Positions 18,001-21,000 of a stretch of DNA of 31,577 nucleotides are shown one piece after another. The DNA is taken from positions 1 to 31,577 of the forward strand of contig JBIOWP010000137.1 of NCBI GenBank assembly GCA_044868695.1. The letters run 5' to 3'. Every line of letters starts with the position of its first letter. Within the stretch, counting starts at the first letter, position 1. Position numbers: made by a program. This stretch comes from a bacterium (GTDB lineage: Bacteria > Sysuimicrobiota > Sysuimicrobiia > Sysuimicrobiales > Kaftiobacteriaceae).

Positions 18001-21000
18001 CTCAACGGTGCCGCCGGCGGACCGCTGCTCCTGGACGACCAGGTGCAGATGGCGCGGGCCCTGCTGGACGCGTTCGAGGTCACCGGGGGCGTTCGATATC
18101 TGACGCTGTCGCGCGAGGTCATGGACGCCGCGCTCAGGACCTTCTGGGACGAGCAGGGGTTCCTTGACGTCCCGCGCGCAGCGGCCGGGCCCGGACTCGA
18201 CACACCGCACAAGCCGGCGCAGGACGCGCCGACGCCGGCGCCCAACGCGGTCGCCGCGCTCGTCCTGCTCCGTCTTGCGCGGATCTTCGAGGAGGCCAGC
18301 TATCGTACACTCGCCGAACGGGTGGTGGTGGGCTTTGCGCCCTCGCTCGCGCCGCACGGGTTGTATGCGGCGACGCTGCTGGCCGCACTGGATGACCTGC
18401 TGCACGAGCCGGCGCACGTCACCATAGTCGGCCCGCCCGGAGACCCCGCGACATCTGCGCTGCACGCGGCCGCGCTGCAAACGTTCCGTCCGGATAAGAT
18501 CGTCACGCTGCACGCCGACGGGAGCACCTCCTTCCCGCTCCCGGGCCCTGTGCGCGCGATGCTCACACGGTCCGGCCGGCCCCAGGCCTACGTGTGCGCC
18601 GGCAACACCTGCGCCCCGCCCACGACAGATCCTGAGACCCTCGCGCAGACGCTGGCCACCTTCGGTCTGTCTGCCCCGTGACCCGCGCCGATGTCCTACG
18701 TCGAGCTCAAACACCTGCTGGCGGACCTCGCGCTCGAAGCGGTCCGGAATCCTGACCGGGCCGCGTGGGCCGCTGTCGCCGCTGCATACGGGGTGCTGGC
18801 GCGCCCCCCGGAGACAGCGATCTCCTGGGACGCGCTCCGCGCCACAGCCGAGCGGATGGGCGCGCGGTTCGCCTGGCGTCCGCGACCCAACGACGCAGGA
18901 TTGCTGGTGGCGCGAGGCCTGTTCGACGTGGGCGAGGGAACAGTGGCGCTGCGCCCGCAGTTTGTTCCATTCCTCGCCTACCTGACGCGCCAGACCTCCC
19001 GGCTGCTCGACGCGTTGTGGACGGTCGCGCGCTCAATGGACGCGGGCGCGGTAGATGACCTTCGGCGCGGCGTCGCCCTCTTCAACGCGGGGTTATTCTT
19101 CGAATGCCACGAGCTGCTCGAGGACGTGTGGAAAACGACAGAGGGAGCAGACAAAGCATTCTTCCAAGGCATCGTGCAAATCGCCGCAGCCTTCTACCAC
19201 TACGAGAAACGCAACCGCCACGGCGCGAGAACTCTCTTAGGCAAGGGCATGCAGAAACTTGCGGGATATCCTGACCAACATCTCGGGGTTGACCTGGCAG
19301 GGCTGATTCGGCTGCTGGACCCCTGGGCCGCGTTCTTCAGCGCCGGCGGGCCGGGGTCGCCGCCGGCCGGATCCCCGCCGAGGATTTCGATGACCGGAGA
19401 CCCGCAGAATCGCCCACCTGCTTTGTGTTAGTATGGTGCAGAGTTGGAGGGGTGACCGAGTCGGCCGATGGTAGCCGCCTGCTAAGCGGTTGAGCGGGCA
19501 AACACCTGCTCCGTGGGTTCGAATCCCACCCCCTCCGCCAGCCACCTCGCCCGCCACCCGGGGTTTTGATGAAACCGAGAATTACAGTTCTGACAATCGG
19601 CGTGAACGACTTAGAGAAATCGCTGAAATTCTATCGCGACGGTCTCGGCCTCAAGACGCCGGGGATCATCGGACAGGAATTTGAATTCGGCGCGGTCGCG
19701 TTCTTTGATTTACAAAATGGGATGAAGCTCGCGTTATGGCCCAGGAAGAGCCTGTCTCACGACTCGGGCATTCCGCTCCAAACTCCAAGCGCGACTGAAT
19801 TTACAATTGGCCATAACGTCGCCAGTAAGAAAGAAGTTGACGCTGTGATGAAACAGGCGCAAGGAGCGGGCGCAAAGATTGTCAAGCCGGCTCACGATAC
19901 GTTTTGGGGAGGCTACGCCGGCTACTTCCAAGACCCTGATGGGCACTTGTGGGAAGTGGCGTGGAATCCCGCGTGGAAGATTGAGGACTAGGGAGTAGTA
20001 GTGGCTACTACTCCCTAATCCCTACTCCAATCTCAGTCGCTGTTAGAGGTTTTCCGTAATCGTCTTCCACTGGCCGGGCGCGAAGATGATGATCGACATC
20101 ACCTTCCCGCTCATCACCCCGGACTTCCCAATGTCGAAGGCGATGCCTTGCGGATCGTAGATGAGCGTGAACGTGCGCTGGTCTTCGTCGGTCGCAAACT
20201 CCTTACCGTAGATCTCTTCCACCATGCTGCGTTCGGTCCCCGCGGTGACGCCGCCCTTGTCCGTCTTGTAGGCATCGCTGAGCTGGATCAGCACGAGGAC
20301 GATTTTGGTGCTCTCCTTCTCCGCGATCAGGAGGAACGGTTTCAGCGGCCAGTCAAGCACGGTGAATTTGTCCCGGTCGGACCGGTCGTAGACGCTGCCG
20401 AGCACTCCGATGGCGTCGGCGACGGTCCCGCCCACCCGGACACCTCCGGCCGCCTGCCCCGCGATAATGTGGCTGCCGTTCTGCGCCGAGGCGGGATGCG
20501 CGAGCAGCGCCAGGCTCAAGAGTCCCACGACCACGATGCGGATCACGGCACTCACCCCAGTGTGGGTGACCGTATTGGCCCCCCAAATATCGTGCCCGCA
20601 GCGGGCCCGCCTTAGCCGTGCGGATGGGGCCGTGTGCTATAATCTGCGTGCGCGCGCGCCCGTAGCTCAGCGGATAGAGCGTTGGCCTGCGGAGCCAAAG
20701 GTCACAGGTTCAAGTCCTGTCGGGCGCGCCATTCGACTCGCCCGCTTCCGGCGGACTCGCTCATGGCCTCCGGCCAGTTGCTTCCGCACCCATTTTGCGG
20801 GATAACCGGACCGTCTGTTAGAATGGCCCTGCGGGCCCGTAGCTCAGTGGATAGAGCAGGGGACTCCTAAGCCTCTGGTCGGGGGTTCGATTCCCTCCGG
20901 GCCCGCCAGAAATTTGCCGGGGCCTCGGGTGTAGGAACGAAATCTAGCTTGCCAAGCTATCGCGAGGATCAGAGGGGCTTGGGCCGCGAGGGAGGTGCCG

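Follow-up and report, generated by a model that had tools for sequence, protein, structure and literature searches.

A tRNA-Arg(GCG) gene occupies the tRNA-Arg(ACG) slot in a high-G+C Sysuimicrobiota genome without TadA

Several bacterial groups read the CGN arginine box without inosine. In the Mycoplasma pneumoniae group, tadA is absent and the box is read by tRNA-Arg(GCG) and tRNA-Arg(UCG), and the available text of Yokobori et al. (PMC3711424) names the same decoding for Borrelia, Campylobacter, Helicobacter, Treponema and Thermotoga and describes four-codon boxes elsewhere that are likewise read by a G34/U34/C34 set. The accessible part of Ehrlich et al. 2021 (PMC8007984) names Thermotogae and Spirochaetes as users of GCG; in these groups, as in Campylobacter and Helicobacter, GCG replaces ACG, ACG is tied to tadA, and A34 and G34 isoacceptors are mutually exclusive (PMC8007984, PMC3711424). 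Comparing five inosine-loss clades in 1,093 genomes, Diwan and Agashe (bioRxiv 10.1101/251322) treat TadA as ancestral, find that its loss accompanies loss of the ACG tRNA and acquisition of tRNAs that are not its targets, and propose that an expanded tRNA set relaxes selection on TadA. The available text of that study names Spirochaetes and a proteobacterial class, and further clades in its figures and supplements may include Chloroflexi. TadA is also dispensable in B. subtilis, according to the available part of PMC10454642. In the archaeal CGN box, as outlined in the accessible sections of PMC8007984, all ANN anticodons are missing and there is no A34 deaminase.

Here we analyse a tRNA-Arg(GCG) gene in a 31,577-nucleotide stretch of DNA (the window; contig C137) from the genome (G000; 2.59 Mb, 66.9% G+C) of a soil-dwelling, uncultured member of the Sysuimicrobiota. 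ARAGORN finds an intact tRNA-Arg(GCG) on the plus strand at 20656..20731, with its GCG anticodon at gene position 34 (window 20689-20691), and the cloverleaf scores 73 bits against an Rfam RF00005 gathering score of 29. The sequence carries A20, C35, G36, G37 and G73 together with an encoded CCA, and it contains every element of the ArgRS identity set A20, C35, G36/U36 and A73/G73 as listed in the available portion of PMC13433404. A contig from another sequencing run of the same study spans 20653-20934 with 0 differences from the window, so the G34 is no assembly error. Energy folding gave a z of -1.79 with the anticodon stem shifted. A candidate extended -10-like promoter element at 20635..20643 (plus strand), 12 bases 5′ of the gene, was picked out by eye for its match to the consensus.

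The arginine anticodons of G000 are GCG, UCG (C153:1569-1644), CCG (C158:271-346), UCU and CCU. No tRNA-Arg(ACG) was found by ARAGORN in the whole 2.59-Mb assembly, including at a lowered threshold; three ACG calls at that threshold were flagged as pseudo and lacked tRNA motifs, and extra arginine calls obtained with introns allowed or with the threshold lowered were spurious. These results bear out the genome-wide survey's note, which had reported the gene and this GCG, UCG and CCG set with ACG missing. The same note's statement that CGC is the commonest arginine codon also stands, with 25,366 CGC against 21,769 CGG in 1,802 heuristically chosen open reading frames. One A34 tRNA, with an ACU anticodon, is encoded at C130:5188-5263. 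MnmG was not found in G000.

TadA is likewise missing from G000, as the note had claimed. The family model NF008113 detected none, at a cut-off that just 6 of 14 control genomes reached and that may therefore miss true TadAs. A profile built from 31 TadAs of the phylum and run with --max against all six frames of the genome returned only a dCMP deaminase, at 42.8 bits. Searching with PF00383 recovered two deaminase-fold genes, one that is dCMP-deaminase/ComEB-like and follows upp, the other for a cytidine deaminase and preceding era. The usual site of tadA is assembled in G000 but empty: tRNA-Ser(CGA) lies at C14:2272-2361, and an MBL-fold/beta-CASP gene stops about 40 bases 5′ of it. Among relatives, whose families we designate f1 to f7 (G000 belongs to f1), tadA adjoins tRNA-Ser(CGA) in 6 of 9 f5/f7 loci against 0 of 21 f1/f2 loci, and with stops read as X no tadA remnant was found beside this tRNA, either in those 21 loci or in the 7 longer sequences searched from TadA-less genomes. 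The tadA of f4 is located elsewhere. G000 has neither component of the canonical bacterial TadA/I34 system, whereas f4 and f5 have both. The window feature is thus confirmed as real and well supported, a tRNA-Arg(GCG) in a genome without an ACG tRNA or TadA.

The G34 plus U34 arrangement of G000, with GCG and UCG present and ACG and tadA absent, resembles that of the M. pneumoniae group as set out in the available text of PMC3711424, and in both cases the gain of UCG would precede replacement of ACG (steps 4 and 5a of the Mollicute scheme). Other features set it apart from that text. The CCG tRNA is kept here, whereas the Mollicute scheme includes CCG loss; UCG turns up in members of this phylum that still have tadA; and the G+C content of the genome is 67%, against the moderate or low values with which Yokobori et al. 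associate the strategy.

The gene lies in a conserved tRNA cluster. Reading along the window, a DUF255 thioredoxin-domain gene that is a conserved upstream neighbour of the cluster (16528..18681, plus strand) is followed by a DUF309 gene (18691..19431, plus), which is also present in f5 and is 41% identical to the copy in the f5 genome G080, and then by tRNA-Ser(GCU) (19446..19540, plus), which marks the upstream side of the slot filled by tRNA-Arg(ACG) in TadA-bearing relatives. Next come an inserted glyoxalase-family gene not seen at any other locus compared (19566..19991, plus), a 170-residue open reading frame without a Pfam match that is divergent from the tRNA (20043..20555, minus), tRNA-Arg(GCG) itself and the downstream marker of the slot, tRNA-Arg(CCU) (20833..20908, plus). 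The order in G080 is DUF255, DUF309, an extra gene, tRNA-Ser(GCU), a homologue of the 170-residue frame, tRNA-Arg(ACG) and tRNA-Arg(CCU). Homologues of this frame lie directly before tRNA-Arg(ACG) in f4 and f5 (5′ of ACG in 12 of the 18 f4 loci examined); in f1 the homologue adjoins GCG. The shared order of tRNA-Ser(GCU), an arginine tRNA and tRNA-Arg(CCU), together with the common flanking proteins, places the GCG gene in the ACG slot. The note had called this decoding the archaeal way; the likeness holds for the anticodon logic, G34 in place of A34, but both gene and slot are bacterial. Nothing points to an archaeal origin of the gene: of the sequences compared, the nearest to it is a bacterial CCG gene of the same phylum, and the gene sits in a bacterial cluster.

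We extended the comparison to 94 genomes of the phylum, of which 36 were counted as TadA-bearing (f4 23, f5 12, f7 1) and 58 as TadA-less (f1 22 with G000 included, f2 34, f3 1, f6 1). TadA scored above the NF008113 cut-off in 34 of the 94, comprising 22 of 23 in f4 and 12 of 12 in f5; the remaining f4 genome, below the cut-off, carries a TadA fragment, and in f7, represented by one genome, a TadA scoring 138 bits lies beside tRNA-Ser(CGA) and groups with the f5 TadAs at support 100. The f5 TadA itself departs from the usual sequence at two conserved positions. None of the 58 genomes of f1, f2, f3 and f6 has a match over the cut-off (best 92.6 bits), including G001, which is assembled in 4 contigs. 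These observations bear on the suggestion that tadA and the ACG tRNA exist in G000 but were left unassembled. The assembly is 95% complete in 162 contigs and is short of 8 of the 44 tRNA types expected, including His, so absence from G000 alone is weak and the case rests on relatives and synteny; the ACG slot is assembled with GCG inside it, the tadA site is assembled and empty, and four whole families agree, which makes such an artefact extremely improbable.

Arginine tRNAs divide along the same family lines. A tRNA-Arg(ACG) pattern matched 30 of 36 TadA-bearing genomes and 1 of 58 TadA-less ones, a tRNA-Arg(GCG) pattern matched 39 of 58 TadA-less genomes and 0 of 36 TadA-bearing ones, and 19 of 58 TadA-less and 6 of 36 TadA-bearing genomes matched neither. 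A looser pattern found neither gene in all five of these last genomes that were tested, four of them TadA-less. The CCG tRNA is widespread across the phylum. Of the 23 f4 genomes, 16 have UCG alongside TadA and ACG; of the 12 f5 genomes, none does. Variants can escape the strict pattern: in 4 of 5 f1 genomes, UCG came to light by BLAST. When near-complete genomes were rechecked by BLAST, ACG was absent from five of five TadA-less genomes, and GCG and UCG were absent from five of five f5 genomes. The tallies take in two unpublished genomes, G017 (GCG, UCG and CCG) and G025 (UCG), and the conclusions are independent of both. The family-wise exclusion claimed in the note therefore becomes a near exclusion over 94 genomes, with one exception in f2: G015 (69% complete) has both ACG and GCG. 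Its ACG gene sits on a contig of 2,116 bases. The closest matches to this contig at the loci compared are 73-75% identical and come from outside the phylum set, and we presume it to be misbinned or mobile. In summary, the TadA plus ACG state and the GCG state are nearly mutually exclusive and split by family, and f4 is the predicted intermediate, with TadA, ACG, UCG and CCG. Such mutual exclusion of A34 and G34 isoacceptors is shared with Thermotogae, Spirochaetes, Campylobacter and Helicobacter (available text of PMC8007984); in those groups the trait characterizes whole phyla or classes, whereas a single order here contains both states together with an intermediate. The CGC share of CGN codons in rpoB plus rpoC was 0.41-0.63 in 11 TadA-less genomes and 0.27-0.58 in 8 TadA-bearing ones, and since these ranges overlap and the genomes are akin we claim no shift in codon use.

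Could a divergent deaminase below the cut-off replace TadA, or edit another A34 tRNA such as the ACU tRNA on C130? Some f1 and f2 genomes do encode short deaminases scoring 62-93 bits, one of which matches TadA and guanosine deaminases about equally, and G000 does hold an A34 tRNA. These short proteins are patchy, absent from G000 and without the stretch that follows the zinc motif in the TadAs of the phylum, and the ones included in the tree do not group within the TadA clade; with G34, moreover, there is no arginine substrate for an A34 deaminase. We therefore consider this very unlikely. The note had taken the sub-cut-off matches of about 50 bits in frames of 300-480 residues for RibD-like proteins, and long-frame matches proved to be RibD in 3 of 3 phylum cases tested.

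The body of the GCG tRNA resembles CCG, not ACG, judging from the aligned gene sequences. Step 5a of the Mollicute scheme has GCG nearest to the ACG of relatives; the GCG groups here lie a mean 6-10 bases from CCG against 10-15 from ACG, and they differ in this from the simple A34-to-G34 change inferred in the available text of Yokobori et al. (PMC3711424). The f1 GCG anticodon arm has 0 differences from f5/f7 CCG against 6-7 from ACG, and the G000 gene differs from the CCG gene of G080, its nearest sequence among those compared, by 1 base besides base 34. The ACG bodies of f4 are likewise near CCG (4.8 differences), so the CCG likeness is no proof of descent; as these f4 genes are near CCG outside the anticodon arm, the isoacceptors seem to homogenize, in a way that fits conversion and convergence equally. 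A tRNA tree of 61 rows and 72 columns resolved little and is too weak to place the origin of the gene. Excluded from this comparison were the atypical ACG genes L033 and L050, an f6 CCG gene that could not be aligned and three unpublished loci.

Similar gene content extends well beyond this phylum. Species genomes were scanned for GCG with a pattern that required a GC-rich stem, giving at least 120 matches of which 80 were listed, so the scan speaks to presence and not to frequency. Among the 80 matches listed, 42 are from Actinomycetota (20 of them Thermoleophilia), 28 from Chloroflexota, 3 from Bipolaricaulota and 7 from other groups, and in 50 the flanking sequence is 65% G+C or higher, under a pattern that favoured GC-rich stems. 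We searched 26 of these GCG genomes, two of which belong to the phylum of the window (one, G113, unpublished); none of the 26 gave an ACG match or a TadA score above the cut-off (highest 93 bits). Among 151 sampled genomes of Armatimonadota (the phylum of G106), 120 have GCG, 18 ACG, 1 both and 14 neither; TadA is over the cut-off in 17, or in 18 if one scoring 146.6 bits is counted, and of these 18 TadA genomes 16 have ACG and 0 have GCG. ACG without TadA occurs in two Armatimonadota genomes, in one of them within a dense array of 11 tRNA genes. In Chloroflexota (the phylum of G100, a member of Dehalococcoidia), for which only TadA was scored, it is over the cut-off in 25 of 301 sampled genomes and 38 match at 1e-32, unpublished G426 and G522 included. 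In the class of G094, TadA is over the cut-off in 146 of 201 genomes. Inosine-free decoding is thus common in high-GC neighbours, and special neither to this organism nor to its G+C content. Together with the clades of the literature (PMC3711424 and bioRxiv 10.1101/251322, available text) and the dispensability of TadA in B. subtilis, these many high-GC examples leave the rarity among bacteria that the note had implied without support.

The distribution can be read in two directions. In the favoured one, tadA was lost in the TadA-less families; in the reverse, inosine-free decoding is ancestral, and f4, f5 and f7 regained tadA and the A34 tRNA by horizontal transfer. RpoB alone, analysed with nine outgroups, put the root of the phylum on TadA-less f6 and nested f4, f5 and f7 as a clade at support 98, as regain would have it. 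RpoC and a concatenation of 24 markers did not reproduce that root: both place f5+f7 first, then f4, then (f3+f6) with (f1+f2), leaving the TadA families basal. The concatenation (29 taxa, 5,450 unevenly filled columns, LG+F+G4, fast search) recovers the TadA-less families as one clade with SH-aLRT 99 and the basal f5+f7 with SH-aLRT 70, supports that were taken from the unrooted tree string. Among seven roots compared by the AU test, three were rejected; the best tree reached 0.865, f4 basal 0.313, and the regain topologies also passed, f3+f6 basal at 0.204 and the TadA clade as sister at a p-AU of 0.058. A single origin of the phylum's TadA was not rejected either (p-AU 0.58), which regain would also accommodate. 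The 24-marker tree favours a single loss. A TadA tree (88 rows, 157 columns) settled no deep branching and pointed to no donor. According to the available text of PMC11962464, soil clades of the phylum are nested within aquatic ones.

Gene neighbourhoods add to the case for loss. The pairing of tadA with tRNA-Ser(CGA) recurs in loci of Armatimonadota, Chloroflexota and Thermoleophilia, which points to an old site, and in two GCG-bearing Armatimonadota tRNA-Arg(CCU) runs straight into tRNA-Ser(CGA) with no gene between. Repeated emptying of an old site is simpler than transfers that must each land at the very place where f5 and f7 and three other groups keep tadA, and loss is favoured accordingly; the published reconstruction, in the available text of bioRxiv 10.1101/251322, likewise puts TadA at the root of the bacteria, followed by recurrent losses. 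Weighing the other way, most sampled neighbours are TadA-less and most of the sampled Armatimonadota carry GCG, so that loss demands many parallel events, and the tadA of Armatimonadota often adjoins tRNA-Arg genes, a unit able to move together. On balance, regain is unlikely and loss of tadA in the TadA-less families highly likely. Were regain nevertheless true, the phylum would share its ancestral inosine-free decoding with most Armatimonadota and Chloroflexota, the tRNA of the slot would have reverted to A34 in f4, f5 and f7, I34 decoding would be patchy and mobile across this part of Terrabacteria, and a loss usually treated as one-way would have been reversed.

Under loss of tadA, the anticodons, the slot and the family distribution suggest the following history. 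The ancestor of the phylum would have had TadA, ACG and CCG, a state still kept in f5. A UCG tRNA would have been added next (f4, and f7 as far as it is assembled), making inosine redundant; the occurrence of UCG beside TadA and ACG in f4 is the intermediate expected by Yokobori et al. and by Diwan and Agashe. On the stem of f1, f2, f3 and f6, tadA would then have been deleted, and the ACG slot would have acquired a G34 gene with the anticodon arm of the CCG paralogue, either by gene conversion or replacement by a CCG copy, or by an A34-to-G34 change followed by homogenization. By wobble rules, GCG would form Watson-Crick pairs with CGC and a wobble pair with CGU, UCG would read CGA and probably CGG, and CCG would read CGG. 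With no A34 arginine tRNA left to deaminate, TadA would be unneeded. Although decoding, direction and route to G34 are what we infer here, we regard this full account of inosine-free CGN reading (UCG gain, tadA loss and a G34 gene in the ACG slot) as likely.

Since the decoding strategy is already known from Thermotogae, Spirochaetes, Helicobacter, Campylobacter and some mycoplasmas, as described in the available parts of the papers cited, the single gene is ordinary. New are the intermediate state within one family, f4, and the CCG-like body of a GCG gene in the ACG slot. A literature search of partial coverage did not find Chloroflexota or Armatimonadota named as users of GCG, and Sysuimicrobiota, Armatimonadota, Chloroflexota and Gaiellales are not named as exceptions in the available text of PMC8007984. 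The accessible portions of two papers on the phylum (PMC11604079 and PMC11962464) do not treat inosine-free CGN decoding, and those of PMC12255301, PMC2817472 and PMC6313347 hold nothing on the distribution of the trait. Set against the parts of the literature available to us, our survey suggests that exceptions to I34 decoding far outnumber the published ones and take in most of the Armatimonadota sampled, most of the Chloroflexota sampled (by TadA content), some Thermoleophilia and Bipolaricaulota, although cultured cases may already be familiar to users of tRNA databases. These exceptions would bear on codon-adaptation models that assume an ICG anticodon and on the question of where TadA could drive mRNA editing. 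For the Sysuimicrobiota, one order displays at one chromosomal slot the canonical state in f5, UCG added beside TadA in f4 and the TadA-less state in f1, f2 and f6, and this full series makes the model in which the tRNA set is first expanded and the enzyme then lost testable by synteny.

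In TadA-bearing genomes of the neighbouring Armatimonadota, tadA is in most cases placed directly after a cluster of tRNA genes in the order Ser(GCU)-Arg(ACG)-Arg(CCG)-Arg(CCU) (loci L475-L492). The same cluster is retained in a GCG-bearing Armatimonadota genome (L724), with GCG at the ACG position. In the single f7 genome, G093, which is 89% complete, we found neither an ACG nor a GCG tRNA. The ACG genes of f5 are the group closest to its tRNA-Arg(UCG) (L140:4888-4963), 8 bases apart, and sequence comparison suggests that this UCG tRNA was derived from an ACG gene. Searching the whole assembly of the source genome, G000, yielded no match to MnmG, and synthesis of xm5U34 may therefore be missing in this organism.

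G000 also encodes a tRNA that combines an arginine-type body with the A34 anticodon ACU (L146:5188-5263 on contig C130, minus strand). This gene adjoins tRNA-Thr(CGU), with a tmRNA nearby, in a stretch of 55-59% G+C, and its D and T arms are altered. Among seven arginine tRNAs compared, it is closest to an f4 ACG gene (15 differences), as against 18 differences from the UCU and CCU tRNAs. One possible reading is a decayed island gene; alternatively, the tRNA might misread AGU.

Immediately behind the tRNA-Arg(GCG) and tRNA-Arg(CCU) pair of the window is a gene (21139-24000) whose 953-aa product contains guanylate-cyclase, NB-ARC, TPR and LuxR domains. Further along the window, a gene fusing an alpha/beta hydrolase to a glycosyltransferase-28 C-terminal domain (26743-28929) is flanked by a polysaccharide deacetylase on one side and a second hydrolase on the other. 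On contig C14 of G000, a large recombinase-like ORF (L143:6012-7697), the start of which we take to be resolvase-type, overlaps a signal-peptidase-like ORF at the end of the latter and lies about 1.4 kb from tRNA-Ser(GGA). At least 120 viral contigs, L217-L296 among them, match the GCG tRNA pattern, in contrast to the statement in PMC8007984 that the tRNA genes missing from bacteria are missing from phages too. Part of these contigs may represent host flanks of proviruses.

In the f5 and f7 proteins examined, TadA is substituted at two positions on either side of the zinc motif, presumably residues that contact the tRNA. All nine f5/f7 TadAs examined (L141:9929-10420, L131, L012, L020, L025, L026, L028, L030 and L031) have Asp before the motif and Ser after it, where Staphylococcus aureus TadA (PDB 2b3j) has Asn and Asp, respectively. 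The enzyme of f5 and f7 may have been weakened or altered.
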